Virus record (IMG/VR): IMGVR_UViG_2778261009_000008 | Location: 1-51,038 of that record | DNA length: 51,038 nt | Strand: one strand, 5' to 3' | From: a virus | Lineage: Duplodnaviria > Heunggongvirae > Uroviricota > Caudoviricetes | Shown: piece after piece, positions 12,044-46,352 of the stretch | Position numbering within the stretch: the first letter of the stretch is position 1 | Layout of the letters: every line of letters begins with the position of its first letter | Notes under the pieces: generated by a model | Database searches by the model: none | Told to the model about the DNA's origin: nothing | Seen by the model: the letters and a program-made list of their open reading frames with translations, nothing else | Translations under genes and position numbers: made by a program

Positions 12044-12688
12044 CTATTTAACTGTCCATGCCGGGCTGAAATCCACTTCCTGAAATAACTCAGTTAGCCC
12101 GCTAATTTGTTTAAGTCTCAGTACTTCATCCTGATCCATACCCAACTCAGTGCCAATGCGTTCATCTGCCCATCCCAAGCGTGAAAGATCTCTTACAATA
12201 TCAGACACTGAGTCTATCTGGTGTTTCCCCCTAGCCCGGTTATGTCGAATGGTTGCGGCAATGCGTGCGGCTTGCCCTTTTCTCTCTGGATTAATACAGG
12301 CTACAGGCAGCCAGCCCCTCAGACGTTTTCCTGTAACTGATTCTCTGCCCAATAACTGACGATGAAAACCATCCACCACCAGATAATGATTCTTCTCCTC
12401 TGACACCACCACCGGTTGTGTGAAACCATCTTTTTCCAGTGACTGCTTCAGCAGTTTCTTCTCACTTGGTGCCATGACATTGGGGTTATAATCGTTGGCT
12501 ACCACCTCATCCGCTTTCACCCACAGCACACAGTCTACAGGCTCCTGTGCAAAAGGACTGACTTCATGCAGTACCCCGCGCAGATGGTTAAGGGCTCGTA
12601 TGGACTCTTCTTCGGGCTGTTCCCGACTGAAGTACTGACGAATCATGTTGCTTAGTACATCCATCTCAGGCGTCACAGAATCCCCCAT
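12044..12688 (-). CDS. ParB-like nuclease domain protein (IbrB-like)
   Basis: 214 aa; ParB/Srx-fold motifs (…YLVVDGFHRQ…, …IRHNRARG…); overlaps the upstream PAPS-reductase-like gene. Confidence 0.8.
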   Translation of the reverse strand: MGDSVTPEMDVLSNMIRQYFSREQPEEESIRALNHLRGVLHEVSPFAQEPVDCVLWVKADEVVANDYNPNVMAPSEKKLLKQSLEKDGFTQPVVVSEEKNHYLVVDGFHRQLLGRESVTGKRLRGWLPVACINPERKGQAARIAATIRHNRARGKHQIDSVSDIVRDLSRLGWADERIGTELGMDQDEVLRLKQISGLTELFQEVDFSPAWTVK

Positions 12689-13899
12689 TCTTTCCTCCTT
12701 TCCTTCATTCGTTGCAGATAACGCTCATAGTGCCGGGGTTTGTTCGGACTGAAGGAGAGGGTCCGGCACCAGAAGTCATTCTTTATGAGCGTCTTACAGA
12801 TACGTCGCCAGGACGGGATATCCCGGCTCCCCAGGTCATTCTCCTGTTCATCCGGGATATCATCCGGGAAGCCCCGCGTCTGATACCAGCGCAGGTAGAC
12901 TGCAATTTTGTTACGGTAATGTTCTGCTGTTCTTTCTGGCATAACATCCAGCATGAACATTGCGTAGCTGCGCCAGGTATGATGAGCCGGTTTTGTGATT
13001 CGTTTACGCAGAGCAAAATAGGCACCGCTTTCATTGGCATAAAGAGCGCCACTGGCAGCCCCTGACACTCGCTCACACATCCTGGCCCAGGTTTCCGGCT
13101 CCAGAACATGGTAAAGCCACAGCCCCTTACGCTGTTCCGGGCCAAAGGGCTCACAAACACGCATGTTGCGTAACGACACTCCGGCACGGTACATTAGGTC
13201 GTACAGGGGATTGTAGATGGCGCGGGTTCTTGAGTTATACGTCCATATATCATTTGTTTTCCAGTCATACAATGGATACATGGTGTAGTAAAAACCATCG
13301 GGTGAAGCGGTGGTCCAGGGTTTATCATCTGCATATCTCAGTTTGCGCTGAGACACCAGTCCCATAAAGCGATTGAGCGATTCATCAGCACGAACACCAG
13401 TTAGTATTCCCACTCCACATCGGTTACCGGCAAACCAGGAAGAAAATGCCGGAACAAATTCTTCAAACGTCATGGCATACCGATAAAATGGGAAATACGA
13501 CATATCTGTAATAGCGTCATCTGGTGGCTGACGAACCCATTCTACACCTGGCTCCCAACATATCCATTCTGGCTGAAACTGAGAGACGCCATTTACCGTA
13601 GTCAGAGGAAGCGCTACCCAGTAAAAATTGTCTGTCACATGCCGGTACATTTCCCTCATCTTTTGGATATGATTAATCGTGCACTGATATTGGGCTTCCC
13701 AGTCAATGAATAAAACCGAAAAACGACGTTTTTTTCTACTGGCGACTTCTGCCACAAGATGGAAAAGCACAGTAGAGTCTTTGCCACCAGAAAAAGACAA
13801 GCAGACCTCATTAAACGTTTCGAACAACCATTCAATGCGATGGATTGCTGCTGACAGAACATTTTCCCCTGTGCTGATTTTTGTTATGGTTCCTGACAT
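12673..13899 (-). CDS. PAPS-reductase-like PP-loop ATP pyrophosphatase (IbrA-like)
   Basis: 408 aa; PP-loop motif SFSGGKDS near the N-terminus; AT-rich promoter-like region upstream (13900-14050). Confidence 0.85.
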   Translation of the reverse strand: MSGTITKISTGENVLSAAIHRIEWLFETFNEVCLSFSGGKDSTVLFHLVAEVASRKKRRFSVLFIDWEAQYQCTINHIQKMREMYRHVTDNFYWVALPLTTVNGVSQFQPEWICWEPGVEWVRQPPDDAITDMSYFPFYRYAMTFEEFVPAFSSWFAGNRCGVGILTGVRADESLNRFMGLVSQRKLRYADDKPWTTASPDGFYYTMYPLYDWKTNDIWTYNSRTRAIYNPLYDLMYRAGVSLRNMRVCEPFGPEQRKGLWLYHVLEPETWARMCERVSGAASGALYANESGAYFALRKRITKPAHHTWRSYAMFMLDVMPERTAEHYRNKIAVYLRWYQTRGFPDDIPDEQENDLGSRDIPSWRRICKTLIKNDFWCRTLSFSPNKPRHYERYLQRMKERRKEWGIL

Positions 13900-14053
13900 A
13901 CAATCTTCTAATGATAAAACGGTAAAACCTATACTTATTAAGTAATATTATGTAACAATCATTTTGCATGAATGCAATATGTGATGGTCTTATACACTTT
14001 TTATCGCATTCTGGTTAAAATCATCCAGCCAGCCTGAACAACTGGCACCTGCT

Positions 14054-14345: not shown

Positions 14346-15395
14346 GTGCGGGTATTACTTCGACCTGTTCTGGTGCCGGAACTTGGCCTGGTGGTCCTTA
14401 AGCCCGGACGCGAATCACTGCCTGTTTTTCATTGCGGCAGGGTGCTGGTGGAGCCGGAACCGAAAAGCATGCGTGCTCTGCCGTCCGGGTTTGTACCTGC
14501 CGTTCGCCAGCCGCTGGCGGAAGATAAATCATTACTGCCATTTTTCAGCGATGAGCGGGTGATCCGTGCTGCGGGTGGCGCTGGTGTACTGTCTGACTGG
14601 TTATTACGTCACGTGAAATCCTGCCAGTGGCCACACGGCGATTATCATCACAGCGAAACCGTCATTCACCGTTACAGTACCGGCGCGATGGTGTTGTGCT
14701 GGCACTGCGACAACCACCTGCGGGAGCAGACATCTGATTCACTGGAGCTACTTGCTCAACAGAATCTGGCCGCCTGGATGATTGACGTCATCCGTCACGT
14801 AATGAATGGCGCACAGGAGCGTGAATTATCGCTGGCTGAATTATCCTGGTGGGCGGTCTGCAATCAGGTGGCTGATGCGCTTCCGGAATCTGTATTGCGT
14901 CGTTCGCTGGGATTACCGGTGGAAAAAATTCGCTCCGTATACAGTGAGAGCGACATCATACCGGGAGAGCAGACCGCCACCAGCATCCTGAAGCAGCGGA
15001 CAAAAAACATAGCGCCACCGCTTCACGCCCACCAGCCACAAACCACGCCACAGGAAAAGACGGTAGTAAGCATCGCCGTTGATCCGGAGTCCCCGGAATC
15101 TTTCATGAAACGGCCTAAACGTCGTCGCTGGGTTAATGAAAAGTTCACGCGCTGGGTTAAGACGCAGCCGTGTGCATGCTGTGGAAAGCCAACTGATGAT
15201 CCGCATCACTTGATTGGCCATGGGCAGGGCGGTATGGGGACAAAATCCCACGATATTTTCACACTACCGTTGTGCCGGGAGCACCACAACGAACTTCATG
15301 CTGACCCGCTGGAGTTTGAGAAAAAGTACGGGTCCCAGGTTGAGTTAATTTTTCATTTTCTTGATCACGCCTTTGCGACTGGCGTGCTCGGGTAA
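14346..15395 (+). CDS. DUF968-domain protein (YdfU-like)
   Basis: 349 aa; Cys/His-rich C-terminus (…CACCGKPTDDPHH…CREHHNELH…); standard position upstream of rusA. Confidence 0.8.
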   Translation: MRVLLRPVLVPELGLVVLKPGRESLPVFHCGRVLVEPEPKSMRALPSGFVPAVRQPLAEDKSLLPFFSDERVIRAAGGAGVLSDWLLRHVKSCQWPHGDYHHSETVIHRYSTGAMVLCWHCDNHLREQTSDSLELLAQQNLAAWMIDVIRHVMNGAQERELSLAELSWWAVCNQVADALPESVLRRSLGLPVEKIRSVYSESDIIPGEQTATSILKQRTKNIAPPLHAHQPQTTPQEKTVVSIAVDPESPESFMKRPKRRRWVNEKFTRWVKTQPCACCGKPTDDPHHLIGHGQGGMGTKSHDIFTLPLCREHHNELHADPLEFEKKYGSQVELIFHFLDHAFATGVLG

Positions 15396-15407
15396 AAGAG
15401 GTGACTG

Positions 15408-15767
15408 ATGCTCATAGATTTGGTTTTACCTTACCCGCCAACGGTGAACACCTACTGGCGTCGTCGTGGCAGCACATATTTTATCTCGGAGGAGGGAAAG
15501 CGCTATCGCCGTGCTGTGGCGCTTATTGTTAACCAGCAGCGGCTGAAATTAAGCCTGTCCGGAAGGCTGGTAATCAGGATTATTGCAGAGCCACCGGATA
15601 AGCGCCGCCGTGACCTGGACAATATTCTGAAAGCGCCGCTGGATGCGCTTACGCATGCGGGGTTGTTAATGGACGATGAGCAGTTTGATGAAATCAATAT
15701 TGTGCGTGGCCTGCCTGTTCCTGGCGGGCGGCTGGGGATAAAAATCACAGAACTGGAGTGCGCATGA
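15408..15767 (+). CDS. rusA: Holliday junction resolvase RusA
   Basis: 119 aa; aligns with E. coli RusA including the catalytic block RRRDLDN…DAL…G…DD. Confidence 0.85.
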   Translation: MLIDLVLPYPPTVNTYWRRRGSTYFISEEGKRYRRAVALIVNQQRLKLSLSGRLVIRIIAEPPDKRRRDLDNILKAPLDALTHAGLLMDDEQFDEINIVRGLPVPGGRLGIKITELECA

Positions 15768-16447
15768 ATAACCAGTATTTACAGTTTGTTCGTGAGCAAC
15801 TCATGATTGCCACTGCGGATCTCAGTGGGGCGACAAAAGGCCAGCTGGAAGCCTGGCAGGAGAATGCCCTGTTCGATACAGGGCGTTACAGACGCAAAAA
15901 AATTCGTTATCGCGATGAGGTAACCGGAAAAATGATCACGCGGGATAATCCACCGATCCCGGGTAAACAATCACTGGCGAAAGGCTCATCAATTGCGCTG
16001 GTCAGTCCGGTTGAGTTTGCAACATCATCGTGGCGGCGTGCCGTTCTGGAACTGGAAGAACATCAGAAGGCGTGGTTACTGTGGTGCTACAGTGGAAATG
16101 TTTGCTGGGAAGATCAGGTCACTATAACACAATGGGTATGGGGTGAGTTTAAAGCTCAGGCTGGTACCAGAAAAATTGCAGGGAAAACGCTGGATCGTCT
16201 GAAGAAACTGATTTGGCTGGCGGCACAGGATGTGAAGAGTGAGCTGGCAGGGCGTGAGACCTATGAACATCAGGAGTTAGCGGTGTTCATAGGAGTTGCT
16301 AAATCTACATGGACAAAAACACACAGGCCTCACTGGTTGGCTATGCGGGGTAGTGCAGAGATGCTGGACAGGGATGCTCTTATTTCAGTAATGCGGGTAC
16401 GTTCACGGCAAAAGTCGCTTAATTTAGAACCATATCTTGCAAAATAG
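15758..16447 (+). CDS. Q-like late antiterminator (putative)
   Basis: 229 aa ORF directly after rusA, followed by a TATAAT hexamer and two intrinsic terminators; assignment rests on position, not on recognised similarity. Confidence 0.5.
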   Translation: MRMNNQYLQFVREQLMIATADLSGATKGQLEAWQENALFDTGRYRRKKIRYRDEVTGKMITRDNPPIPGKQSLAKGSSIALVSPVEFATSSWRRAVLELEEHQKAWLLWCYSGNVCWEDQVTITQWVWGEFKAQAGTRKIAGKTLDRLKKLIWLAAQDVKSELAGRETYEHQELAVFIGVAKSTWTKTHRPHWLAMRGSAEMLDRDALISVMRVRSRQKSLNLEPYLAK

Positions 16448-16516
16448 AACTGAAGAGCATATATTCCGTGTAAATCTGATATTTTGCAGATTTTGTACGC
16501 GATGGCAAAGTAAGCA

Positions 16517-16543
16517 AACCCCGCCGCCGAGCGGGTTTTTTGT
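16517..16543 (+). terminator. Intrinsic terminator downstream of the Q-like gene
   Basis: GC-rich hairpin CCCGC-CGCCGA-GCGGG followed by TTTTTTG. Confidence 0.6.
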
Positions 16544-16562
16544 TGGCTTAACAGGTTATAAT
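16530..16562 (+). promoter_or_regulatory. Candidate late promoter (pR'-like) with consensus -10 TATAAT
   Basis: Perfect TATAAT at 16556-16561 with a weak -35 (TTGTTG) about 17 bp upstream; the upstream edge overlaps the T-run of the preceding terminator. Confidence 0.35.
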
Positions 16563-16743
16563 GTACAGTGCGAAACTGCCTGTTCAGCAGAATCATAGAG
16601 TGTTGACTGATACTGTCGCTGTACCCTGATGGGACTTGTGAGACTTCCGAACTGGAAGCCAGGAGTAGCAATAAGGTGATGACAAGCCTGCTGCCCTGTG
16701 TAAAAGGCACCTTAATGGTGCCTTTGTCGTTTTTATCAAAAGA

Positions 16744-16768
16744 TCCCCGCCACTGGCGGGTTTTTTAT
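16744..16768 (+). terminator. Intrinsic terminator (tR'-like)
   Basis: Hairpin CCCGCC-ACTG-GCGGG followed by TTTTTTA, about 190 nt downstream of the TATAAT. Confidence 0.6.
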
Positions 16769-16889
16769 GCCCGAAAAACGGCACAGGACGTTAAACGCGC
16801 TGGTGCTCGTGAATAGCGACCTTTCATCTTGCTGGCTTTTTCGACAAGAGTTATTGGTGTGTCACGTTAACCGGAAAAGGGAAAAAGAC

Positions 16890-17087
16890 ATGCTGAAACA
16901 GCAGGATATGACAGAAACCGCCAGAGTGGTGTTTAATGAATTAAGCGTCACCGAACCGGCGACAGTCGGGGAGATTGCGCAGAATACTTACCTTTCACGC
17001 GAACGCTGCCAGTTAATACTGACCCAGCTGGTTATGGCGGGGCTGGCAGACTATCAGTTCGGTTGTTACAGACGCCTTCAGTCCTGA
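16890..17087 (+). CDS. Small winged-helix-like DNA-binding protein
   Basis: Shorter start MLKQQDMTE chosen because the longer ORF (16767) would begin inside the terminator; 65 aa with HTH-like segment (…PATVGEIAQNTYLSRERCQLILTQLV…). Confidence 0.45.
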   Translation: MLKQQDMTETARVVFNELSVTEPATVGEIAQNTYLSRERCQLILTQLVMAGLADYQFGCYRRLQS

Positions 17088-17100
17088 AGGCTTTTTTATT
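17074..17100 (+). terminator. Intrinsic terminator
   Basis: Inverted repeat GCCTTCAG/CTGAAGGC followed by TTTTTTATTT. Confidence 0.5.
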
Positions 17101-17237
17101 TGTGGTAAATGGGCGGCTGGTGGGTGTTAGGGGCACTCACCAGCCATCTGCTCATGCGTCAGGATCACAAGCAAACCTCAGGCCCACTGCTTTGCGCAAA
17201 AGCAGAATGAGCCTATCAGAGACAGGCTTAATGATCC

Positions 17238-18296
17238 ATGCTTAATACTGTAAAAATATCCAGTTGTGAGTTAATCAACGCTGACTGCCTGGAATTTATC
17301 CGGTCGTTACCCGAAAATTCTGTTGATCTGATAGTCACGGACCCGCCGTACTTTAAAGTGAAGCCTGAGGGCTGGGATAACCAGTGGAAGGGCGACGATG
17401 ATTACCTGAAGTGGCTGGACCAGTGTCTTGCGCAGTTCTGGCGGGTGCTGAAACCTGCCGGAAGTCTTTACCTGTTCTGTGGCCATCGCCTGGCATCTGA
17501 TATCGAAATCATGATGCGTGAACACTTCAGTGTGCTGAACCATATTATCTGGGCAAAGCCGTCCGGACGCTGGAACGGGTGCAACAAGGAAAGCCTGAGG
17601 GCGTATTTCCCCGCCACAGAGCGCATTCTGTTCGCGGAACATTATCAGGGGCCGTATCGCCCGAAAGATGCCGGGTATGAGGCGAAGGGCAGGGCACTGA
17701 AACAGCATGTGATGGCCCCGCTGATTTCTTACTTTCGTGATGCGCGTGCTGCCCTGGGGATAACGGCAAAACAGATAGTGGATGCCACAGGAAAGAAAAA
17801 CATGGTGTCGCACTGGTTCAGTGCCAGCCAGTGGCAGTTACCGGACGAAAGCGATTATCTGAAATTACAGGCGCTGTTTGCCCGGGTGGCAGAAGAGAAG
17901 CATCAGCGCGGAGAACTGGAAAAGCCACATCACCAACTGGTCAGCACATACAGTGAACTGAACCGGCAGTATACGGAACTGCAGAGTGAATATAAGCATC
18001 TGCGGCGGTATTTCGGTGTGACGGTGCGGGTGCCGTACACCGATGTGTGGACGCATAAACCGGTGCAGTACTATCCCGGGAAACATCCGTGCGAAAAACC
18101 GGCAGAAATGCTGCAGCAGATAATCAGTGCGAGCAGTCGTCCGGGTGACCTAGTTGCAGATTTCTTCATGGGGTCGGGTTCGACAGTCAAAGCAGCGATG
18201 GTGTTGGGGCGTCGTGCTACAGGCGTTGAGCTGGAGACTGAACGTTTTGAGCAGACGGTCAGGGAAGTTCAGGATTTAGCCAGCCAGAACGGATGA
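17238..18296 (+). CDS. DNA methyltransferase (N6-adenine/N4-cytosine class, DPPY motif), orphan
   Basis: 352 aa; catalytic motif IVTDPPYF; no adjacent restriction endonuclease gene visible. Confidence 0.85.
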   Translation: MLNTVKISSCELINADCLEFIRSLPENSVDLIVTDPPYFKVKPEGWDNQWKGDDDYLKWLDQCLAQFWRVLKPAGSLYLFCGHRLASDIEIMMREHFSVLNHIIWAKPSGRWNGCNKESLRAYFPATERILFAEHYQGPYRPKDAGYEAKGRALKQHVMAPLISYFRDARAALGITAKQIVDATGKKNMVSHWFSASQWQLPDESDYLKLQALFARVAEEKHQRGELEKPHHQLVSTYSELNRQYTELQSEYKHLRRYFGVTVRVPYTDVWTHKPVQYYPGKHPCEKPAEMLQQIISASSRPGDLVADFFMGSGSTVKAAMVLGRRATGVELETERFEQTVREVQDLASQNG

Positions 18297-18336
18297 TATT
18301 GCAGGATTAGTTACGTACCGTTATTATCCTGCGCCC

Positions 18337-18412
18337 GGCCCTTTAGCTCAGTGGTGAGAGCGAGCGACTCATAATCGCCAGGTCGCTGGTTCAAATCCAG
18401 CAAGGGCCACCA
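18337..18412 (+). tRNA. tRNA with anticodon CAT (Met, or Ile2 if lysidine-modified)
   Basis: Hand-folded cloverleaf: acceptor GGCCCTT/AAGGGCC, D-arm GCTC…GAGC, anticodon loop CTCATAA, T-arm GCTGG-TTCAAAT-CCAGC, encoded CCA. Confidence 0.85.
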
Positions 18413-18421
18413 TATCACATA

Positions 18422-18498
18422 CCGCCATTAGCTCATCGGGATAGAGCGCCAGCCTTCGGAGCTGGCTGCGCGGGGTTCGAGTCCTCGATGGCGGTCCA
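18422..18498 (+). tRNA. tRNA-Arg (anticodon TCG)
   Basis: Hand-folded cloverleaf: acceptor CCGCCAT/ATGGCGG, anticodon stem CCAGC/GCTGG with loop CTTCGGA (U33, G37), T-loop TTCGAGT, encoded CCA. Confidence 0.8.
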
Positions 18499-18776
18499 TT
18501 ATCTGCATCATGCGTTGTTAGCTCTGATGAGTGAATCATTGTCTTTTGAGCAACAGGCTATCATATAAGATAGTCTCAGATTTCCTTGTTTATTCTCGCC
18601 GGATGCTTCGTAGATATTTGCAGGCATCTGTATGCAGGGGTATTATTGCGGCATATATCATCCGGAAAAATAAAAACTACATGCTGATCCGGAGATGATA
18701 GTTACAAGTCCTCCCGGATCCCGCATATTTACTATATTTTATAGATAATTGTTCTTGTTAATATGGAGATGGATAA

Positions 18777-19205
18777 ATGTATTGCCGTGCTGTACCGGTT
18801 CTTGTTTTGATATTAGCCAGTCTGACAACTGGCTGCACAAAAGATGTATCGACAAATAATTATGATGCTTCGCTGCATCACTCAGATAAATTAATAAAGT
18901 CGCAAAATTTGAGCTTATCGGAACGTACCCCTGATGCCAGTGAAGAAATCCGGCAGTATGCCATTCAGGTCAGGGAAGCCATAGAAGAACAGTTAAAGGA
19001 TGCGGGTAAGTATTCAGGAAAAGAGTGTTCACTGAGAATGTATATGGCCCCGAATGGTCTTCTGCTACAGGTTAAAAGAGAAAGCGGTGATCCCGATTTA
19101 TGTCGTGAAGCGATGAATGCAGTAAAGAATGCTGATATACCATCACCACCGTCTTCAGGAGTATATAAAGCATTTAGAAATGGCGTGCTGGATTTTAAAC
19201 TCTGA
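18777..19205 (+). CDS. Lipoprotein with TolA C-terminal domain (domain III)-like fold
   Basis: 142 aa; signal peptide plus lipobox-like LTTGC; C-terminal about 90 aa align with E. coli TolA domain III (…YSGKECSLRMYMAPNGLLLQVKRESGDPDLCREAMNAVKNADIPSPPSSGVYKAFRNGVLDFK…). Confidence 0.7.
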   Translation: MYCRAVPVLVLILASLTTGCTKDVSTNNYDASLHHSDKLIKSQNLSLSERTPDASEEIRQYAIQVREAIEEQLKDAGKYSGKECSLRMYMAPNGLLLQVKRESGDPDLCREAMNAVKNADIPSPPSSGVYKAFRNGVLDFKL

Positions 19206-19261
19206 CTGGGGGAGAAGATTTTCTCCTGTCCAGATGATTTTGGGGTGCTGGAAAGATATTG

Positions 19262-20640
19262 TGCTGTGAAGTGTTAAATTCCTCACAATTCAGTAAGTTG
19301 ACAGTTGCCTGTCAGACTGGGCATTTGTTAAAAAAATTTCGCATGGTGAATCCCCCTGTGCGGAGGGGCGACTGGTGAACGGTATGATCTCTTTGATGAT
19401 CGTAAGCGAGAATACGCGGGTTTAGTGTCACCGGGCTGAACTCACCGGGAGGCACCCGGCACCATGCTCATGGTGATACAGAAATGCGGCTTCAGCCCCT
19501 CTCTGGAGGGGCTTTCTTATGGACAAAAAAGCCCGCGCTGGGAGACGCGGGCGGCAAGGAATAAACAATAAAACGTGAAGTAATATTTCAGCTGGCGAAT
19601 AATACCCCATAGTAATCACTCTGCGCAACTGCGCGGCCTTTTTCGAATTGCGGGCTGTAGTCTCCCTTCTGCCGGGTGGCCTGGTTGCAGATTTCTTCAT
19701 GGGGTAGGGTTCGGCAGTTAAAGCAGCGATGGCGCTGGGGCGTCGTGCTATAGGCGTTGAGCTGGATACCGGGCGTTTTGAACAGACTGCGCAGGCAATC
19801 AGGGATATATTTATCGGTAGCTGTTTGCAGAAGTAATCTCCCAAAATTCCATTTTTGGAATGCAGTGGTTGTTGCTGTAGTGTGGGCAAGTTCTGGAACT
19901 GGCTTCGTCCATTGCAGATGATTGTTAGCTGGATATCAGTTACCTCATGGAAATGTTAAATGACTCACAGTTCGGTTGATGGACTATTGTCTGATTGATG
20001 GAAGTCTTGTAAAAACGAGCCAGCATAGTGAATCCCCCTGTGCGGAGGGGCGTCTGACATGGTCTCCATAGCGATGGTCACAATACGCAGATTCAGTAGT
20101 CAGGCTGAATCTACCGGGAGGCACCCGGCACTATGCTGCTTATGGTGTATACACAGCGATCGGCCCCTCTCCTGAGGGGCTTTTTTTGTGCGGGAAAAGG
20201 CTGTGTTGTGAAATGTTAAATTCCTCACAATTCATGAGGTTGATGATTGTCTGATTGATGAGGAGTTTGTTAAAAAAAGCGGGCATGGTGAATCCCCCTG
20301 TGCGGAGGGGTGATATCGTATCATTTCCTGTGTGGTCGACTGATATCACGGACATTTGTTCACCGGGAGGCACCCGGCACCATGTAGTATACAGAGATTA
20401 GGCATACATCCAGGCTCCTCATTGCAGGAGCCTTTTTACATGCAAAAAAAACCGCTCCAGGGAAGAGCGGTTGGCAAGGAATAAATAACAAAACGTGAAG
20501 TAATTTATTCAGCGCCCTAATAATACCTTACAGTAATCACATTGCGCAACTGTATGTAAGGGCGTATTTCTTTTTTGCGGGCTGTTTTGTGTGACTTTTG
20601 TGTTTCCGGAGGTCAGCCCGTGCCTTCTCTGACTCAGAAC
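19262..20640. repeat. Triplicated non-coding module (conserved blocks A-B-C plus hairpin, three tandem paralogous copies)
   Basis: Block A (GAAATGTTAAATTCCTCACAATTCA) at about 19270/19949/20210; block B (GTGAATCCCCCTGTGCGGAGGGG) at 19347/20028/20287; block C (CACCGGGAGGCACCCGGCACCATG) at 19443/20112/20361; each followed by a GC hairpin (T-run clear only in copy 2); an about 80-bp block D at 19554 and 20473. Confidence 0.6.
19681..19835 (+). pseudogene. Duplicated 3' fragment of the DNA methyltransferase gene
   Basis: About 125 bp near-identical to 18156-18290 (the C-terminal 47 codons of the 17238-18296 gene) with a TCG to TAG change; no start or upstream gene body. Confidence 0.7.
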
Positions 20641-20662
20641 ATTATTCCGGCCGGGAGGATTC

Positions 20663-22651
20663 ATGGCATTTAAACACTACGATGTGGTCAGGGCGGCATC
20701 GCCGTCAGACCTTGCTGAACGACTGACACAAAAACTGAAGGAGGGGTGGCAGCCATTTGGCAGCCCTGTCGCCATCACGCCTTATACCCTGATGCAGGCT
20801 ATTGCGGCGGAAGGTGATGTCACCACGCCGGTGCTGGTTAAACCATCGGGTGACGGGGAGACGGCTATCAGCAAGACCGGTGAGCCTGAATATTATTATG
20901 TTGTCGCGCTGGCGGGTCAGTCAAATGGTATGTCTTTTGGAGAGGGAGTACCGTTACCTGATTCTTATGATCGCCCTGATCCGAGAATTAAGCAGCTTGC
21001 CCGTCGACGTACCGTTACGCCGCGAGGCGTTCCCTGCACCTATAACGATGTTATTCCGGCAGATCATTGTCTTCATGATGTGATGGATATGAGTGAAAAA
21101 AATCACCCCCGGGCAGACCTCAATAAAGGTCAGTATGGTTGTGTGGGTCAGGGACTGCATATTGCCAAAAAACTGTTACCGTTTATACCGGCGAATGCGG
21201 GCATTCTTCTGGTTCCATGCTGTCGTGGAGGCTCGGGAGTGACTACAGGTAATGAGGGAACATTTAACGCCTCTTCCGGGGCAAGCCCTGATTCTGCATT
21301 GTGGGGAGCTGATAAGCCGCTGTACCAGGATCTGTTAAGTCGCACGAAAGTCGCGCTGGCTAAAAATCCCGGAAATATCCTGCTGGCGGTAATCTGGATG
21401 CAGGGGGAGAGTGATCTGGCTTCAGGAAGCCAGAGTCATAATGCTCTTTTTACTGGCATGGTACAGAAATTCCGTGCTGACATCGCTGATATGTCAGGGC
21501 AGTGCGTGGGGGGCTCGGCACTGAGCGTTCCGTGGGTTTGTGGCGATACGACGCATTACTGGAAAGAAAAATATGCTGCGTCTTATGAAACTGTATACGG
21601 TGGATATAAAAATAAGGCAGCGCAGAATATTCACTTTGTCCCTTTCATGGTTGATGGAAGCGGGGTAAATGTGCAGACCAATAATCCGGCAGAAGATCCT
21701 GATATTGAAGGTATTGGCTACTCCGGTTCGAAGTGGCGAGACAGTTCTGTCAGCTGGACGTCAGGTGACAGGGCAAGCCATTTCGGTTCATGGGCGCGGC
21801 GTGGAATTATTTCAGATCGTCTTGCAACCGCAATTCTGACCCACGCAGGCAAATACCCGGCGTTTATCACCGGGCGGTCAGAAACGGTAGTTGCAGGAGA
21901 TGAACGGGAAAACGTTACATCCGGAGATTTCCCGTCACCTGTGGAGGATGCTGCGTTATCACAGGATGCACCTCAGAGAAGAACGGTTGTTGAGTATAAT
22001 TCAGCTGTTGAGAAAGACAGCCTCGGTGGTAACTGGGCAGCCCAGCACTGGAATGCCCGGGACGGTGTCGCCGAGTTTGTTAATGATGAAAGCAGACAGG
22101 TGCTGAAGATTAAGCAGCATGAGGGCAAACAGGGACCGTGGATGCTGTCAGCAGGAGTATCAGCTGAAGATGCCCGTGCTCTGTATGAAAATGGCGGTGA
22201 AATAAAACTTGAATTCAGGTTGCCGGATGGTACCCAGGTTGCAGATAACAAATACCTCTTTGGTGTTTACCTGCCAGTTTCCGGGTGGACTCAGGAAGGC
22301 AACAGCAGCAATATGATGGCCTCCTTTTTCACTCAGACAAAAGCCAGTAACCTGGATGTCATGTATCACGGTAAAACACAGCCTAATACAAAAATTGAGT
22401 CATTCGGTGCGGTTAATAACAACTGGCACACGCTTGTCTTTAAATATAAAGGAGGCGGCAATCACCAGGTTATTCCGGTACTTGACGGAGAAGAGAAAAC
22501 AGGTTTTGCACTGAAAGAAGGTCCGGTCACTTCTGCCTTTACGGTGGATAACATCACAGTGACAGGTATCAGCGCAAATCAGGGAAAATCTTATCCTGTC
22601 ATGTTCCGCAGTATCATGGTAAGCATTAACCAGGCAACCTCTTCATCATAA
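20663..22651 (+). CDS. Sialate O-acetylesterase, NanS-p-like (DUF1737 + SGNH esterase)
   Basis: 662 aa; N-terminus MAFKHYDVVRAAS… and esterase block YYVVALAGQSNGM; matches the prophage nanS-p gene that follows stxAB in Stx phages. Confidence 0.8.
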   Translation: MAFKHYDVVRAASPSDLAERLTQKLKEGWQPFGSPVAITPYTLMQAIAAEGDVTTPVLVKPSGDGETAISKTGEPEYYYVVALAGQSNGMSFGEGVPLPDSYDRPDPRIKQLARRRTVTPRGVPCTYNDVIPADHCLHDVMDMSEKNHPRADLNKGQYGCVGQGLHIAKKLLPFIPANAGILLVPCCRGGSGVTTGNEGTFNASSGASPDSALWGADKPLYQDLLSRTKVALAKNPGNILLAVIWMQGESDLASGSQSHNALFTGMVQKFRADIADMSGQCVGGSALSVPWVCGDTTHYWKEKYAASYETVYGGYKNKAAQNIHFVPFMVDGSGVNVQTNNPAEDPDIEGIGYSGSKWRDSSVSWTSGDRASHFGSWARRGIISDRLATAILTHAGKYPAFITGRSETVVAGDERENVTSGDFPSPVEDAALSQDAPQRRTVVEYNSAVEKDSLGGNWAAQHWNARDGVAEFVNDESRQVLKIKQHEGKQGPWMLSAGVSAEDARALYENGGEIKLEFRLPDGTQVADNKYLFGVYLPVSGWTQEGNSSNMMASFFTQTKASNLDVMYHGKTQPNTKIESFGAVNNNWHTLVFKYKGGGNHQVIPVLDGEEKTGFALKEGPVTSAFTVDNITVTGISANQGKSYPVMFRSIMVSINQATSSS

Positions 22652-22798
22652 AACAAAAAAAACGCCAGCGCAGAGGAGAACGGGAGGATAAGTTTGACGC
22701 TGGCGGAGGAGTATCCTCATGGAGAACGATATGTAACACATATCGCCTTTCTTTTATTGAAAAGTCATCGCCATTGTCAACCATAACGGTAAGAAACT

Positions 22799-22981
22799 AT
22801 GACATTTGTTCATCAACTGATGCTGTACTTCTGTACGGTGGTATGCGTGCTGTATCTTCTTTCGGGTGGGTACAGAGTCGTGCGCGATTTCTGGCGCAGG
22901 CAGATTGATAAAAGGGCCGCTGAGAAAATCAGCGCCAGTCAGTCAGCCGGAAGCAAACCCGAAGATCCGCTCATTCCGTAG
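22799..22981 (+). CDS. Hypothetical small membrane protein
   Basis: 60 aa ORF with one hydrophobic helix (LMLYFCTVVCVLYLL) between the esterase and lysis genes. Confidence 0.35.
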   Translation: MTFVHQLMLYFCTVVCVLYLLSGGYRVVRDFWRRQIDKRAAEKISASQSAGSKPEDPLIP

Positions 22982-23018
22982 TCACTTTCTTGACAACACC
23001 TTTCAACGAGAAAATCCT

Positions 23019-23288
23019 ATGTCAGAAATAAAATCGCTGGTCACTGCTGAGGCAGTGAAGGAAGTCCTGCGCTCTGAAGAAGTCCTGAGCGCACTGAAAC
23101 AAAAACTCCGCCAGAATCTTGAGGCGCGTCTTGATGCAGAAGTGGATGCCATTCTGGATGAACTGCTGGGCGCACCGACTGTTCCGGAGCCGGAAGGCAT
23201 TGCGGATGACAGTGCTGTTTCAGATGGCGTCGGGTCTCAGCCTGACGGTAGTGAAGAGCCTCAGCCTGACGGCGAAATGATGATGTAA
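23019..23288 (+). CDS. Hypothetical acidic protein
   Basis: About 89 aa starting MSEIKSLVTAEAV…; acidic C-terminus; start chosen at the internal Met of the longer track ORF. Confidence 0.45.
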   Translation: MSEIKSLVTAEAVKEVLRSEEVLSALKQKLRQNLEARLDAEVDAILDELLGAPTVPEPEGIADDSAVSDGVGSQPDGSEEPQPDGEMMM

Positions 23289-23362
23289 CCATGCGCAGGG
23301 GTGTCGGTGTGAGCTGATGCCCCACTTGTTGTTGTGAGCTTCCGGATTGCGGGAGACGGGGT

Positions 23363-23578
23363 ATGTACCAGATGGAAAAAATCACAACAGGTGTGTCATA
23401 CACCACGTCAGCGGTGGGAACGGGCTACTGGATCCTGCAGTTGCTGGACAGGGTTTCCCCGTCTCAGTGGGCGGCAATAGGCGTGCTGGGGAGTCTGCTG
23501 TTTGGGCTGCTGACATATCTGACGAACCTGTATTTCAAAATTAAAGAAGACCGGCGTAAGGCGGCGCGGGGAGAGTAA
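23363..23578 (+). CDS. Holin (lambdoid S / EssD-like, class II)
   Basis: 71 aa with two TM segments and a charged C-terminus (…[13 protein letters not shown]), immediately upstream of the lysozyme gene. Confidence 0.85.
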
Positions 23579-23582
23579 GCTG

Positions 23583-24116
23583 ATGAGCAGGAAACTCCGC
23601 TATGGTTTATCGGCTGCCGTTCTGGCGCTGATTGGTGCAGGGGCGTCTGCGCCTAAAATCCTCGACCAGTTTCTGGATGAAAAAGAAGGCAACCACACCA
23701 CGGCATACCGTGATGGCGCGGGTATCTGGACCATCTGCCGTGGAGCCACCCGGGTGGATGGTAAGCCTGTTATTCCTGGCATGAAGTTGACGAAGGAAAA
23801 ATGCGACCAGGTTAACGCCATTGAACGTGATAAGGCGCTGGCATGGGTGGAGAAAAACATCAAAGTGCCACTGACCGAACCCCAGAAAGCGGGTATTGCG
23901 TCATTCTGCCCGTATAACATTGGCCCAGGTAAGTGTTTCCCGTCGACGTTTTATAAACGAATTAATGCAGGCGATCGCAGGGGAGCGTGTGAGGCGATTC
24001 GCTGGTGGATTAAGGACGGTGGCAGAGACTGCCGTATTCGCTCAAATAATTGCTATGGTCAGATATCCCGTCGTGACCAGGAGAGCGCGCTGGCGTGCTG
24101 GGGAATCGACAGATAA
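23583..24116 (+). CDS. Endolysin (phage lysozyme, GH24, signal-anchor type)
   Basis: 177 aa; N-terminal hydrophobic SAR-like segment and lysozyme catalytic region (…EGNHTTAYRDGAGIWTICRG…). Confidence 0.85.
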   Translation: MSRKLRYGLSAAVLALIGAGASAPKILDQFLDEKEGNHTTAYRDGAGIWTICRGATRVDGKPVIPGMKLTKEKCDQVNAIERDKALAWVEKNIKVPLTEPQKAGIASFCPYNIGPGKCFPSTFYKRINAGDRRGACEAIRWWIKDGGRDCRIRSNNCYGQISRRDQESALACWGIDR

Positions 24117-24207
24117 GCAGAATATTTTGCTGAAAAATGACGTTGACCAACGCGGACGGATAACACGAAATCCTGCGAACTGGCAAAACCTAAGTGAATA
24201 AAAGTAA

Positions 24208-24246
24208 AAACCCCGTTTGTTGGCAGCAAGCGGGGTTTTGTGTTTC
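24208..24246 (+). terminator. Candidate intrinsic terminator after the endolysin gene
   Basis: Hairpin CCCCG…CGGGG followed by TTTTGTGTTT; long loop, moderate support. Confidence 0.35.
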
Positions 24247-24305
24247 CTGACTCCGGAAAAGTCAAAGGAGAAAGTGTGTTTAATTTTAGCAAACTGATTC
24301 GGGAG

Positions 24306-24404
24306 ATTCGAGTGATGGCTGAAAAATTATCCACCTGGAAGTTCATCCTTATCTGGCTGGTGTTTGTGATTATGGCCTCCGGTTATTTCATCGGTCAGAT
24401 ACGC
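24306..24404 (+). CDS. Small hydrophobic peptide (32 aa) between R and Rz
   Basis: [32 protein letters not shown]; a single TM helix; below track cutoff; weak RBS. Confidence 0.3.
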
Positions 24405-24414
24405 TGGTGGTGAA

Positions 24415-24909
24415 ATGAACCGCGTTCTGTGTGTGGTCATTATTGCCTTGCTGGTGGCCTGTGGTGCGCTTAGTCTGGGGCTGAATCATTACCGTGATAA
24501 CGCCATCACCTACAAAGCGCAGCGCGATAAAAAAGCCAGAGAGCTGGAGCTGGCAAACGCAACCATTACTGACATGCAGCAGCGCCAGCGTGATGTTGCT
24601 GCGCTTGATGCCAGATACTCAAGGGAATTAGCCGATGCGAGAGCTGAAAATGAAACTCTGCGTGCTGATGTTGCCGCTGGTCGTAAGCGCCTGCGGCTCA
24701 ACGCCACCTGCCCCGGTACCGTGCGTGAAGCCACCGGCACCTCCGGCGTGGATAATGCAACCGGCCCCCGACTGGCAGACACCGCTGAACGGGATTATTT
24801 CAACCTCAGAGAACGGTTGATGACAATGCAGAAGCAGCTGGAAGGGGCGCAGGAATATATACGCACTCAGTGCACTAAGCTGGCTTTTTATTATCCGGAG
24901 GATACATGA
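24415..24909 (+). CDS. Rz: Spanin inner-membrane subunit Rz
   Basis: 164 aa; strong alignment with lambda Rz (…[16 protein letters not shown]…[14 protein letters not shown]…[23 protein letters not shown]…). Confidence 0.85.
24635..24820 (+). CDS. Rz1: Spanin outer-membrane lipoprotein Rz1 (embedded in Rz, +1 frame)
   Basis: 61 aa; aligns with lambda Rz1 (…[11 protein letters not shown]…[27 protein letters not shown]…); lipobox VSAC. Confidence 0.8.
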
Positions 24910-25130
24910 AGAAATTACGGGTAACCGTAGAACCTTTTCAGGGAACAATTCCGTTCCGTATTTTGCAGCGTGGTCGTGTTCTTGTTGAAGGTTCGTTCAG
25001 TGGTAAATGTACGCAATTACACTCCCGGACCTTTCAGGTGAATGCCACGAATGAAGAGCTAACCGTTGAGTGTACGATGAATGCCGCTAAATGCCGCATG
25101 GTATCCGCTGCATTACAGCCAGTGTGTTGA
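24906..25130 (+). CDS. Hypothetical small protein
   Basis: 74 aa ORF overlapping the Rz stop (ATGA); Cys-containing; no family recognised. Confidence 0.4.
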
Positions 25131-25460
25131 GCGACCTTATTATCCATGGCGCGGTATTGTCGCCGTATTCCCGTATTAACAGAGACCGCAGCCCGACAGG
25201 GAGACTCCTCTGCGCGAGTGTGCGGGGATAATCAAAAACGATACACACCGGGGTTTACCGCGTTAACGGAGCGCGGCGTTGTCCCCTCATGGTCGCTGGT
25301 CCGGTGCGATGGTGGAAGAAACCGGACGATGTGTTACCTCGCATGACCTGTTATGTCATGTGTCTGATTTGTGATTTAAGTCGGATAATTGTCGTTGCCA
25401 TTAAGCAGAGGATTGATGGCCGACAGGGTGGCATTGTTAGAATAAGACTTATTCTTATCT

Positions 25461-25802
25461 GTGCCGGGAATGAAAATGAAAAGAAATCTTCCGTTAATTA
25501 TTTTGTTGTCTTCTCTGGTTATGGGCTGTACGCAACATAAAACAGATATGCCCCGACAGTTGGTTAAGGCATTACCACAATATCCGGCCTATGCAGCGGC
25601 AAATTATATAAAGGGACGGGTTGATGTGAAGTTTGATATTGGTGCTGATGGTACTGTCACCCGAATTGAGTTTATCCGTTCAGAGCCGCACCATCTGTTT
25701 GATGAGCAGGTTGTAAAGGCGATGGCAAAATGGCGATTTGAGAAGGACAGGCCGCGTAAAGGCGTGAAGAAATCGTTTATCTTTAGTCCTTCTGCACCCT
25801 GA
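25461..25802 (+). CDS. Lipoprotein with TonB C-terminal domain-like fold
   Basis: 113 aa; signal peptide with lipobox-like LVMGC; …LPQYPAYAAANYIKGRVDVKFDIGADGTVTRIEFIRSEPHHLFDEQVVKAMAKWRFE… fits the TonB_C signature. Confidence 0.7.
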   Translation: MPGMKMKRNLPLIILLSSLVMGCTQHKTDMPRQLVKALPQYPAYAAANYIKGRVDVKFDIGADGTVTRIEFIRSEPHHLFDEQVVKAMAKWRFEKDRPRKGVKKSFIFSPSAP

Positions 25803-25933
25803 TTATTTCATCAGAAATTAATTATCACTCTGTTGTTATTCTGTACATCCCGGCAGGGTAAGTCTTGTTCCGTCGGATATGAAGATGAAATATTGTTGGA
25901 GGACAGTGGGTACCTGCTCCTGTAACCGAACGT

Positions 25934-26134
25934 TCATTTCTCGTTATTTGTCATGCTGGCCGGGCGCAGGTGCGTTGCATCTGTTGCCAGCCTTCTCCGG
26001 CAGGCTTCAATAACCCACGCTGAAAAGTTACCGGACCCTTTATGCTCAAGGGCGATGTTGATCTGTTCAATCATGTGATTGGGGAAACGGATATTGCGGG
26101 TTGTGGTTCTGCGGGTCCGGTTTTTCGATGACAT
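25934..26134 (-). CDS. Ribbon-helix-helix (CopG/Arc-like) DNA-binding protein
   Basis: About 66 aa from internal start MSSKNRTRRTT…; RHH-like N-terminal region (…IRFPNHMIEQINIALEHKGSGNFSAWVIEA…); divergent from the HNH gene. Confidence 0.55.
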   Translation of the reverse strand: MSSKNRTRRTTTRNIRFPNHMIEQINIALEHKGSGNFSAWVIEACRRRLATDATHLRPASMTNNEK

Positions 26135-26175
26135 ATTTATTTCCTTTACTGATTGCCATATGACGGGGATTTTAC

Positions 26176-26541
26176 ATGGCTGAGCTTCGTACACTCCAGA
26201 GCAGAATCAAAACACTGAATACCCGACGGGTGAATATTCTGAAGGGGGAACAGCGTCGTGTCAGTGGCAGTGCACGTGTTTCCCTCAAGCGTCATATCTG
26301 GCTCAGGGACGCCGGGCAGTGCTGTATCTGTGGTCGTGTGGTTGACCTCTGTGACAGTGAACTCGATCACCGAATTGCACTTCAGTTCGGTGGTGGTAAT
26401 GAGGAGACGAATCTCTGGACGCTCTGTACCGAATGCCATCGACAAAAGTCTGCTCGTGAAGCGGCGGGTGGTATGCCGGACCCGACGTTGCCGGAGGTGT
26501 CCGGAGGTAGTGGCACAGCGGACGACATCATCGGACTGTAA
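26176..26541 (+). CDS. HNH endonuclease (terminase-associated)
   Basis: 121 aa; HNH motif …CCICGRVVDLCDSELDHRIALQFGGGNEETNLWTLCTECHRQK…; lies just upstream of the terminase genes. Confidence 0.8.
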   Translation: MAELRTLQSRIKTLNTRRVNILKGEQRRVSGSARVSLKRHIWLRDAGQCCICGRVVDLCDSELDHRIALQFGGGNEETNLWTLCTECHRQKSAREAAGGMPDPTLPEVSGGSGTADDIIGL

Positions 26542-26631
26542 CCCGACCGGGGGGGTATCATTCGGCGTAAAAAACGATCGCTCCGGACACCGCGCCCCCT
26601 CTCACGCAGAGAAAAAATTCCCGTTTCAGGG

Positions 26632-26760
26632 CAGTTAACATGTTAACTGGCTGCCCGGGCATTTTTGCGGTTTTTATCTTTATTATTCAGTTTGTTGTGC
26701 GGAAAAAATGTTAACTGGCTTTTTCAGCAAATGTTAACCAGGCAGCAGTTAACATTTGCG
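26632..26760. repeat. ATGTTAAC repeat cluster (candidate cos/terminase-binding region)
   Basis: Perfect 14-bp palindrome GTTAACATGTTAAC (26635-26648) plus AATGTTAACTGG, AATGTTAACCAGG and CAGTTAACATTTG within 130 bp between the HNH and terminase small-subunit genes. Confidence 0.45.
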
Positions 26761-26829
26761 GCATGAGACGCCGGGAAAAATGGGCTGAACCATACCCGGC
26801 TGAGTGCGTTCTGGACCCGGGAGGAGGCT

Positions 26830-27393
26830 GTGCTGACAACGCAAAAACGAAAATTTGCGCTGGCGCTCATGTCCGGGAAAAACAAAACAGCGTCAGCCAT
26901 TGCCGCCGGTTATTCGGCGAAGACCGCCAGGGTTAAAGGCTCGCAGCTGGCAAAAGATCCGGAGGTGCTTGCGTTTATAGCCCGTAAACAATGCGAGACG
27001 GTGGAGGTGGATGAGGTTCCTGTTTACCGGCAGAAAAAATCAGAGCAGGAGGATAAAACCCGTCGCCGTGAGGCGGCTGCAATACCACAGCCGGACGAAA
27101 ACAATCCGGAGATGCCACCGTCCGCGGTGATGTCTCCTGGTATTGAATATATGGAGGATGGTCTTCCCGATCCGGTGAAAGCCATGGGGCGGATCCTGGT
27201 GGAAAACCTCTGCATTGATCCGAAACTGGCACTGGATGCGGCCTGGCGTCTGGCGCAGTTCACGCACCATAAAAAAGGGGATACCGGGAAAAAATCGGCA
27301 AAAGGTGATGCCGCGAAAAAAGCGGCTAACCGTTTTGCGGTGCCACCGCCACCCCGACTGGTGGTGAATAACGATAATGAGGGCAACGGATGA
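26830..27393 (+). CDS. Terminase small subunit
   Basis: 187 aa (GTG start after SD GAGGAGG); N-terminal HTH-like segment (…KNKTASAIAAGYSAKTARVKGSQL…); directly upstream of and overlapping the large subunit. Confidence 0.8.
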   Translation: MLTTQKRKFALALMSGKNKTASAIAAGYSAKTARVKGSQLAKDPEVLAFIARKQCETVEVDEVPVYRQKKSEQEDKTRRREAAAIPQPDENNPEMPPSAVMSPGIEYMEDGLPDPVKAMGRILVENLCIDPKLALDAAWRLAQFTHHKKGDTGKKSAKGDAAKKAANRFAVPPPPRLVVNNDNEGNG

Positions 27394-46154: not shown

Positions 46155-46352
46155 ACATCGCGCCCCGGGATTGCCGGAAGGAGACAAAAACCGTACAGTA
46201 TGCGCGGGTGCCTTTGGCTGATGGCCGGAGGGAACACCTGAAGGCCGGATGTGAAAAGGCCCCGGGCAAACATTCATGTTTAACCCGAGGCCTGACCATT
46301 CATCCTAAGCAAGTGAAAGGTTAGCGCCTCTCCGTAAAAGGAGCAAGCGTTT

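Follow-up and report, generated by a model that had tools for sequence, protein, structure and literature searches.

The window, i. e. the whole stretch of 51,038 nucleotides of viral DNA that was analysed here (IMG/VR record IMGVR_UViG_2778261009_000008), is, judged by its sequence, a lambdoid prophage of Escherichia coli with a backbone of the Shiga toxin (Stx) phage type. Its positions 15000-35000 are 98.6% identical to a prophage of strain JNEC-KY177. Between the lysis and packaging genes lies a small gene for a lipoprotein with a TonB C-terminal domain (CTD), hereafter referred to as the TonB_C lipoprotein, which is the subject of this analysis. The GC content of the gene region is 0.42-0.45, compared with 0.50-0.58 in the flanks. 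The gene comprises the following features:

25466..25469, plus strand: Shine-Dalgarno-like GGGA, 6 nt before the ATG at 25476 (direct reading)
25476..25802, plus strand: coding sequence of the TonB_C lipoprotein, 108 aa, stop codon at 25800-25802 (open reading frame (ORF) list, RefSeq, Pfam)
25476..25529, plus strand: lipoprotein signal peptide MKRNLPLIILLSSLVMGC with the lipobox V-M-G-C18 (direct reading)
25551..25787, plus strand: TonB CTD, residues 26-104, equivalent to E. coli TonB 153-231 (phmmer alignments)

The likely start codon is the ATG at 25476, because the RefSeq entries WP_000828070 and WP_000828069 as well as the curated phage 21 record begin there, and because it combines the GGGA 6 nt upstream with an MK N-terminus that is found in all relatives. 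An equivalent AGGA is annotated as the ribosome-binding site in the phage 21 record. Use of an alternative in-frame GTG at 25461 would afford a 113-aa product (ORF 25461-25802, plus strand) with an identical mature protein. It is this longer form that a first-pass annotation of the window had described as a lipoprotein with a TonB_C-like signature, a description that is borne out by the ORF, the lipobox and the profile matches given below.

The signal peptide consists of K2-R3, a hydrophobic core and the V-M-G-C18 lipobox, which is followed by Thr19 at position +2. The lipobox Cys is invariant, and Asp is found at +2 in none of 23 diverse relatives. According to the +2 sorting rule of E. coli, Asp at this position causes retention in the inner membrane; since the TonB_C lipoprotein carries Thr instead, the rule predicts its sorting to the outer membrane. 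A linker of merely 7 residues without Glu-Pro or Lys-Pro repeats separates Cys18 from P26, the first residue of the domain.

The profile search against TonB_C, which the first-pass annotation had proposed as a check, yielded matches above the respective cutoffs to Pfam PF03544 (TonB_C; E=8.3e-15, 55.4 bits, cutoff 24.6) and TIGR01352 (tonB_Cterm; 54.9 bits, cutoff 27.1). Full-length TonB equivalog models (NCBIfam PRK10819 equivalogs) gave 49-72 bits and thus stayed under their cutoffs of 265-448. In phmmer alignments, residues 26-104 match E. coli TonB 153-231 without gaps (E ~1e-16, 39% identity), and the structures matched are 1U07, 1XX3, 2GSK (2GSK_B), 2GRX (2GRX_C) and Salmonella TonB 8RD6. 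An AF2 model based on 13 close sequences shows the helix and strand order of the TonB CTD, and its top 14 Foldseek matches in the PDB are all TonB CTDs, although the model is of low confidence (pLDDT 61) and serves as a consistency check only. In the 1:1 complex of TonB with the BtuB Ton box, the CTD comprises residues 153-233 (PMC5413942), which approximately corresponds to the stretch found in the lipoprotein. Absent from the 108-aa protein are the inner-membrane anchor of TonB, its Pro-rich spacer or rod and the ExbD-contact region. The TonB_C lipoprotein is a free, lipid-anchored TonB tip and, as it lacks anchor, rod and ExbD-binding region, it can therefore not deliver force but only bind.

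The lipoprotein family and true TonB CTDs were compared column by column (E. coli TonB numbering). Common to both groups are P153, P161, Y163-P164, A167, G174, V176, D181, V182, G186, P198, F202, A209, W213, E216, K219-P220 and, in β3, F230. Two further positions, F180 (F/Y) and Y215 (Phe in the lipoproteins), are aromatic in both. By this alignment, the domain core and the β3 edge strand are retained throughout the lipoprotein family. The window protein carries VKKSFIFS as its β3 equivalent, with which Ton boxes could pair by analogy with TonB.

Genomic context, distribution and selection

The location between lysis and packaging genes that had been given in the first-pass annotation is confirmed by the surrounding genes:

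23363-23578, upstream: holin
23583-24116, upstream: endolysin
24415-24909, upstream: Rz i-spanin (phrog_13, E=3e-76)
24635-24820, embedded in Rz: Rz1 o-spanin (phrog_3198, E=2e-31)
24906-25130, plus strand: 74-aa gene fragment that overlaps the end of Rz
25340..25372, plus strand, upstream: terminator-like hairpin with a T-rich tail (consensus scan)
25934-26194, minus strand, downstream: YlcI/YnfO-family gene
26176-26541, downstream: HNH endonuclease
26830-27393, downstream: small terminase TerS
27390-29051, downstream: large terminase TerL

The TonB_C gene starts 567 bp behind Rz. The position had also been equated with the slot that holds bor in lambda. The slot as such is right, as bor/iss directly adjoins the TonB_C homologue in phage 21 and strain CFT073 between the spanins and the cos/terminase genes; there, however, the homologue accompanies bor and does not replace it. 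The window itself harbors no bor gene.

The same slot behind the lysis genes and ahead of the terminase genes is reused across the phage 21, CFT073, Salmonella, Serratia-type and Klebsiella prophages, with lysis-protein families that partly differ. Its presence varies independently of the neighboring genes, as would suit a moron between essential modules. In a Salmonella prophage (L131), holin, endolysin and Rz are followed by the TonB_C lipoprotein gene. In a Serratia-type prophage (L145), the order is endolysin, Rz, TonB_C lipoprotein gene and large terminase. In the Klebsiella phage ST13-OXA48phi12.4, the gene lies downstream of the annotated holin and lysozyme genes. Apart from these prophage loci, there are chromosomal orphan copies. 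In Raoultella and Klebsiella, such a copy is located between lacZ-lacI and a DUF1440/YagU-like gene (L085 6001-6330), and in Serratia grimesii between a CxxCxxCC-domain gene and dsbB-nhaB (L092 5995-6318). Other orphan copies were found in Erwinia, Pantoea, Pseudescherichia, Gibbsiella and one Catenovulum. At the loci examined, no conserved partner or transporter gene is evident next to the TonB_C lipoprotein gene. A DUF1440 gene is also present in ST13-OXA48phi12.4, ~3 kb upstream of the TonB_C gene, and a recurrent association of the two genes is possible.

The best PHROG match of the TonB_C lipoprotein, phrog_1267 (E=1e-41), bears the label 'Rz-like spanin' from the lysis category. Conceivably, the protein could thus be a late lysis accessory, i. 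e. an outer-membrane lipoprotein that disrupts the envelope or binds peptidoglycan during lysis, which would also suit its position after the lysis cassette and in late-operon orientation in every prophage examined. This explanation is very improbable. The window already contains a complete embedded Rz/Rz1 pair, as is likewise annotated in phage 21, and a globular TonB_C domain is unlike a short proline-rich o-spanin. Moreover, the chromosomal copies are found far from lysis genes, and Fur boxes together with a separate promoter element (see below) do not fit a purely late gene. A spanin identity was hence rejected as largely refuted by the anatomy, that is, by the prophage's own Rz/Rz1 pair, the globular domain and the orphan copies. 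Very probably, the label is an annotation error that stems from gene position, and it will be carried over into annotations of phage genomes.

Elsewhere, the gene is named more generically. RefSeq uses 'TonB family protein', as do the source names of all seven family clusters, and the 2022 phage 21 record uses 'TonB C-terminal domain protein'. In other phage records, 'TonB fragment' and 'partial tonB-like membrane protein' are found. The TonB_C lipoprotein is thus known as an annotation, but it appears to be unstudied as a biological entity. New in this analysis are its prevalence, the purifying selection, the homologues in the same slot in other genera, the chromosomal orphans and the Fur boxes.

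A gene-only search of 5426 complete E. coli genomes detected the TonB_C lipoprotein gene in 1616, with at least 80% of the gene covered in 1612 of these. About 414 genomes carry the window type (at least 95% nucleotide identity) and about 1200 the phage 21 type (~73% nucleotide identity), among them those of the uropathogenic E. coli (UPEC) strains CFT073 and F11. At the protein level, the phage 21 copy is 71% identical to that of the window. Between these two types, dN/dS amounts to 0.12 with synonymous sites near saturation, which argues for purifying selection on the TonB_C lipoprotein. An exhaustive HMMER search returned thousands of true TonBs and, in addition, a set of proteins of 100-135 aa that align from residue 1. 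All of the latter that were inspected possess a lipobox, and the lipobox signal is kept among relatives down to 33-45% identity. The viral contig search with a broad family alignment gave near-identical copies only, and the informative family loci were obtained from a narrower alignment and from single-protein queries.

Several copies of the gene are truncated or frameshifted. Along with names such as 'TonB fragment' and 'partial tonB-like', these could suggest a functionless, drifting remnant of a host tonB gene that was acquired by a phage. Such a view is hardly tenable, given the low dN/dS at near-saturated synonymous sites, the conservation of an acquired lipoprotein signal in distant relatives, the nearly full length of almost all E. 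coli copies and the conserved regulatory elements. A dead tonB fragment was therefore discarded, as it is refuted by the selection and conservation data.

As for the borders of the inserted segment, the ORF at 24906-25130 matches no more than positions 100-172 of a PHROG with 291 positions and no assigned function, and its JNEC-KY177 counterpart carries an internal stop and is annotated as a pseudogene. The ORF is probably what is left of a gene, at a recombination scar that borders the lysis module. Further downstream, a stretch of ~190 bp (window ~25148-25335) is ~85-90% identical to the segment between bor and the TonB_C gene in phage 21, which is partly annotated there as the 45-aa hypothetical protein CPT_21_72. 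The mobile module hence seems to include this upstream stretch. The hairpin at 25340..25372 may represent the left border of the moron, although its significance is weak. As a conserved terminator, the hairpin (25340-25362) was rejected, since it has no counterpart in phage 21. A consensus scan found no terminator downstream of the TonB_C gene.

Putative promoter element and Fur-like sites

The region directly upstream of the window gene contains three overlapping elements:

25435..25443, plus strand: putative extended -10-like element TGTTAGAAT, 41 nt upstream of the start codon (direct reading)
25441..25459, no strand assigned: Fur-box-like 19-mer that matches GATAATGATAATCATTATC at 13/19 positions on the minus strand, a score reached by 17 of 500 shuffles
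25439-25455: perfect 8-1-8 palindrome AGAATAAGaCTTATTCT, which overlaps both the Fur-like 19-mer and the -10-like element

A simple scan of the plus strand upstream of the gene found no full sigma-70 -35/-10 pair. MAFFT did not convincingly align the upstream regions across genera, and promoter motifs were compared across loci by position. Of 16 loci examined, 9 share an extended -10 of the form TGnTAnnnT at a distance of 35-41 nt before the start codon; among these are the window as well as homologues from Salmonella, a Klebsiella phage and Raoultella/Klebsiella. Folding of the RNA from 25330-25480 gave a stable structure (z = -3.25), which was of no help for the interpretation.

For the Fur sites, the 120 nt upstream of each family member were scored against the 19-bp consensus and compared with 500 dinucleotide shuffles. 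Strong boxes (at least 14/19) were found in 15 of 23 loci. For 14 of these, at most 2 of 500 shuffles reached the score; for the remaining one, L091 (14/19), 11 of 500 did so. As a background, none of 391 windows of 260 nt from the 51-kb sequence reached a score of 15, and 5 reached 14. Four loci, namely two Salmonella prophages, Raoultella lignicola and a Klebsiella, display the perfect 7-1-7 consensus TGATAATnATTATCA. Their boxes, TGATAATTATTATCA or TGATAATCATTATCA (4966-4984 in both L131 and L139 from Salmonella prophages; also L089 and L090 from Raoultella/Klebsiella), are located a few bases downstream of the extended -10 and directly upstream of the TonB_C gene. More generally, the Fur box overlaps TGnTAnnnT or lies just downstream of it in the Salmonella, Klebsiella and Raoultella group, and strong Fur boxes without this element occur in Serratia, Erwinia typographi (L094) and L123. 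The genes behind these perfect boxes look like clear candidate Fur-controlled prophage accessory genes.

The Fur-like site of the window is positioned at -35, compared with -34 for the strong boxes of the Salmonella-prophage and Raoultella homologues, and it is present in every viral contig of the window type, a set with little internal variation. The palindrome at 25439-25455 was considered as a universally conserved operator and rejected, because a deletion has removed its right half in phage 21 and CFT073. The reading suggested by these comparisons is that the family is typically controlled by Fur from a promoter of its own, as would befit a lysogenic-conversion gene. Expression of the window copy may respond weakly to Fur or be constitutive, and late read-through expression is also likely, as the gene is co-oriented with the late operon. 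Taken together, the TonB_C lipoprotein is, on sequence grounds, an often Fur-linked gene located where the lysis and packaging modules meet in prophages of at least four genera. From the comparison of Fur boxes, a Fur link would not be limited to stx1, the iron-regulated toxin gene, but would extend to another family of prophage genes.

Such boxes are typical of iron-uptake genes. Their strength in 15 of the 23 loci may thus point toward an accessory factor, induced via Fur, that supports or adjusts iron acquisition and that would serve as a fitness gene of the prophage, or as a virulence gene, in iron-poor niches. It could act, for example, by holding exposed Ton boxes, by shaping the competition of transporters for TonB or by anchoring to another envelope partner. 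Chromosomal copies among housekeeping genes in Raoultella/Klebsiella and Serratia grimesii would be in line with such a role, as would the frequency of the gene in pathogenic lineages including Shiga toxin-producing E. coli (STEC) and UPEC CFT073. In addition, the family-wide replacement of TonB-invariant Arg residues hints at a diverged partner. Yet, there is no known mechanism by which a force-less TonB tip would promote transport, and no conserved partner gene or transporter obviously adjoins at the loci examined. Furthermore, the effect reported so far for free periplasmic TonB domains is an inhibitory one, as periplasmic TonB fragments reportedly inhibit FecA and FhuA transport (Howard, Herrmann, Stratilo and Braun 2001, J Bacteriol 183:5885). 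An accessory role in iron acquisition is hence considered unlikely.

Possible roles of the TonB_C lipoprotein

TonB-dependent transporters provide entry not only for iron and vitamin B12, but also for group-B colicins, many microcins, siderophore-antibiotic conjugates and phages such as T1 and phi80. The hijacking of these transporters by colicins and phages is well documented, and a Ton-box peptide in the medium blocks TonB action (PMC5413942). Binding of Ton boxes to the TonB CTD proceeds via parallel β-strand augmentation with a Kd of ~9 µM (PMC5413942).

The reading preferred here, which is held tentatively and with somewhat less than even confidence, is that the TonB_C lipoprotein is an iron-linked lysogenic-conversion product that occupies Ton boxes at the outer membrane and thus antagonizes TonB-dependent entry. 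The gene would be a lysogenic-conversion moron of a lambdoid prophage, whose product is held by its tether of ~7 residues just beneath the outer-membrane transporters. As the β3 edge strand is retained, Ton boxes could add to this copy of the TonB CTD as a parallel strand. The lipoprotein would thus most likely occupy the Ton boxes of ligand-loaded TonB-dependent transporters, those in the emerging translocation domains of incoming group-B colicins, or both. Through competition with the scarce real TonB, this would dampen the TonB-dependent entry of colicins, microcins and phages such as T1 and phi80, at the cost of some loss of siderophore and vitamin B12 uptake. In the wider family, a Fur operator at the promoter would lead to expression upon iron starvation, when FepA, Cir, FhuA and kindred receptors are derepressed and exposure to group-B colicins, microcins and TonB-dependent phages peaks. 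In the window copy, the putative promoter element is kept and the Fur-like site weakened. Outer-membrane location, promoter activity, Ton-box binding and phenotype are what we infer from these features. The first-pass annotation had suggested that the lipoprotein might act as a decoy toward TonB-dependent invaders or might modulate iron uptake, and both ideas gain indirect support, because the Fur boxes of the relatives tie the family to the iron/TonB regulon.

Several points weigh against this proposal. Residues that are invariant in TonB are swapped across the whole lipoprotein family (R166 to Tyr, N200 to His and R204 to Asp/Glu, with R171 being variable), and A196 and M201 are likewise changed to Ser and Leu, respectively. 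Of these, R166 is presumably a contact to the FhuA plug in 2GRX. The conserved TonB tail 234-239 is also absent. Because of these replacements and the missing tail, the binding specificity of the lipoproteins may differ from that of TonB. Concerning regulation, the Fur-like site of the window is weak (13/19), and the phage 21 type as the commonest E. coli variant has none (10/19). Owing to its co-orientation with the late operon, the gene may be expressed mainly late in lytic growth. Induction of an iron-uptake inhibitor under iron starvation looks costly, and the orphan copies of Raoultella, Klebsiella and Serratia do not easily fit a function purely as decoys against phages or colicins. Finally, the structure model is of low confidence, PADLOC gave 0 matching defence families, and functional work on phage-borne or lipid-anchored TonB_C proteins did not turn up in the literature search.

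Alternatively, the lipoprotein could target or titrate TonB itself instead of the Ton boxes, which would afford the same phenotype with far fewer copies, as TonB is far scarcer than the transporters under iron starvation. The TonB CTD aromatics, which are reported to mediate CTD-CTD contacts in vivo, are retained (Y163, F180, F202, W213, Y215 as Phe, and F230). In addition, 1IHR, 1QXX and 1U07 are among the PDB structure matches, and short TonB CTD fragments are known to crystallize as dimers. Yet, it is debated whether TonB CTD dimers have any functional relevance, and the family-specific substitutions of surface Arg residues could equally disfavor such pairing. Titration of TonB is thus regarded as improbable.

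The occupation of Ton boxes, if correct, would have consequences beyond this prophage. A natural, mobile and possibly iron-regulated binder of TonB partners could alter all TonB-dependent entry at once, and its gene is present in ~30% of complete E. coli genomes, including those with Stx phages and UPEC CFT073, as well as in Salmonella, Klebsiella and Serratia prophages. If the lipoprotein blocks entry, it would represent a new and broad prophage-conferred resistance to colicins, microcins and phages that could confound phage therapy and 'Trojan-horse' siderophore antibiotics, and it would offer a natural template for TonB inhibitors. If it aids iron uptake instead, a system under study for 50 years would gain a new accessory component. 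In either case, this prophage accessory lipoprotein is encoded by one small gene, is directly testable and bears on the susceptibility to colicins, phages and siderophore drugs.

Relation to known systems

The window harbors a second lipoprotein of comparable architecture, whose locus is organized as follows:

18337-18412 and 18422-18498, plus strand: two tRNA genes
18777..19205, plus strand: TolA-III lipoprotein, 142 aa, lipobox LTTGC (Pfam TolA, E=3.4e-22)

ARAGORN assigns the tRNAs to Met (CAT) and Arg (TCG), while RefSeq calls the first one tRNA-Ile in related genomes (lysidine-modified CAT). A Stx2c relative has three tRNAs at this site. The TolA-III lipoprotein gene, whose presence in the prophage had been recognized in the first-pass annotation, lies downstream of the phage tRNAs in the slot that holds stx in related phages. 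RefSeq mislabels its product as a full 'cell envelope integrity protein TolA'. Like the TonB_C lipoprotein, it combines a lipobox signal with the C-terminal partner-binding domain of an energy transducer and is widespread and uncharacterized. It differs in its domain family, in its location in the stx slot, in the lack of an upstream Fur-like box (best score 12/19) and in its independent distribution. The TolA-like gene is found in 897 of the 5426 complete E. coli genomes, compared with 1616 for the TonB-like gene, and strain 89-3156 carries a 100%-identical TonB-like gene in a prophage with stx2c in place of the TolA-like gene in the stx slot. On account of these counts and of the stx2c prophage, the two genes are independent modules. 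Of the two-component strategy against Tol- and Ton-dependent invaders that was suggested in the first-pass annotation, the structural premise holds, as both lipoproteins are present here and a lipid-anchored TonB CTD without energy coupling does occupy a moron position; an obligatory pairing with the TolA-III lipoprotein does not hold.

A broader generalization would be that lambdoid prophages of Enterobacterales carry a hitherto overlooked class of 'import-motor mimics', i. e. outer-membrane-tethered TonB tips and, in some cases, also TolA tips that intercept, on the inner side of the outer membrane, the Ton and Tol boxes of receptors, colicins, microcins and phage proteins. The TonB mimic would be under Fur control, with protection increasing as iron starvation derepresses the receptors, and a broad-spectrum exclusion that acts on an entire class of invaders would then be found in ~30% of E. 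coli genomes. This is a speculative and rather doubtful proposition at present. If true, the associated trade-off in iron uptake could be relevant to STEC, UPEC and Salmonella when they live in an inflamed gut.

The related prophages contain further accessory genes. Full-length ompC-like porin genes are found within the tail cluster of strain 89-3156 (L001 35442-36605) and between Q and the holin gene in CFT073 (L130 1354-2436); these are additional envelope-remodelling accessory genes on the same phage backbones. The annotation of the JNEC-KY177 prophage (L002) lists an IbrB-like/PAPS-reductase (IbrA-like) pair on the minus strand (12045-13900), a Hok/Gef toxin gene that lies between J and the gene for the tail fibre (46341-46481) and a protein with a YadA C-terminal domain at the end (49428 onward).

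The closest known relative of the TonB_C lipoprotein is the CTD of E. coli TonB (P02929; PDB 1U07, 1XX3, 2GSK, 2GRX), to which it belongs by fold family and is 39% identical; both have the YP motif, an aromatic core, the K-P turn and β3. In contrast to TonB, however, the lipoprotein is predicted to be lipid-anchored to the opposite membrane and has neither a transmembrane anchor nor the Pro-rich spacer or the ExbD contact; it is therefore not an energy transducer. In this respect, it resembles the engineered fragments of Howard et al., which likewise place the periplasmic domain of TonB in the periplasm, uncoupled from ExbB/ExbD. With their reported inhibition of FecA and FhuA transport, these fragments are a direct experimental precedent for a dominant-negative action as preferred above. 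Those were reportedly soluble and overproduced laboratory constructs of host sequence, whereas the protein described here is natural, diverged, lipid-anchored and borne by a prophage.

With regard to its genomic setting, the TonB_C lipoprotein is reminiscent of Cor (phi80/N15), Llp (T5) and Bor/Iss (lambda, phage 21), which are also small lipoproteins encoded in an accessory slot of siphophages. There is no sequence relation to these proteins, as the Pfam and PHROG matches were of the TonB_C type only, and Fur control of Cor, Llp or Bor is, to our knowledge, not known. Cor and Llp inactivate FhuA, itself a TonB-dependent transporter, and thereby protect the lysogen or the infected cell. Hence, while Cor and Llp target one receptor, a lipoprotein that binds Ton boxes would act on the whole class.

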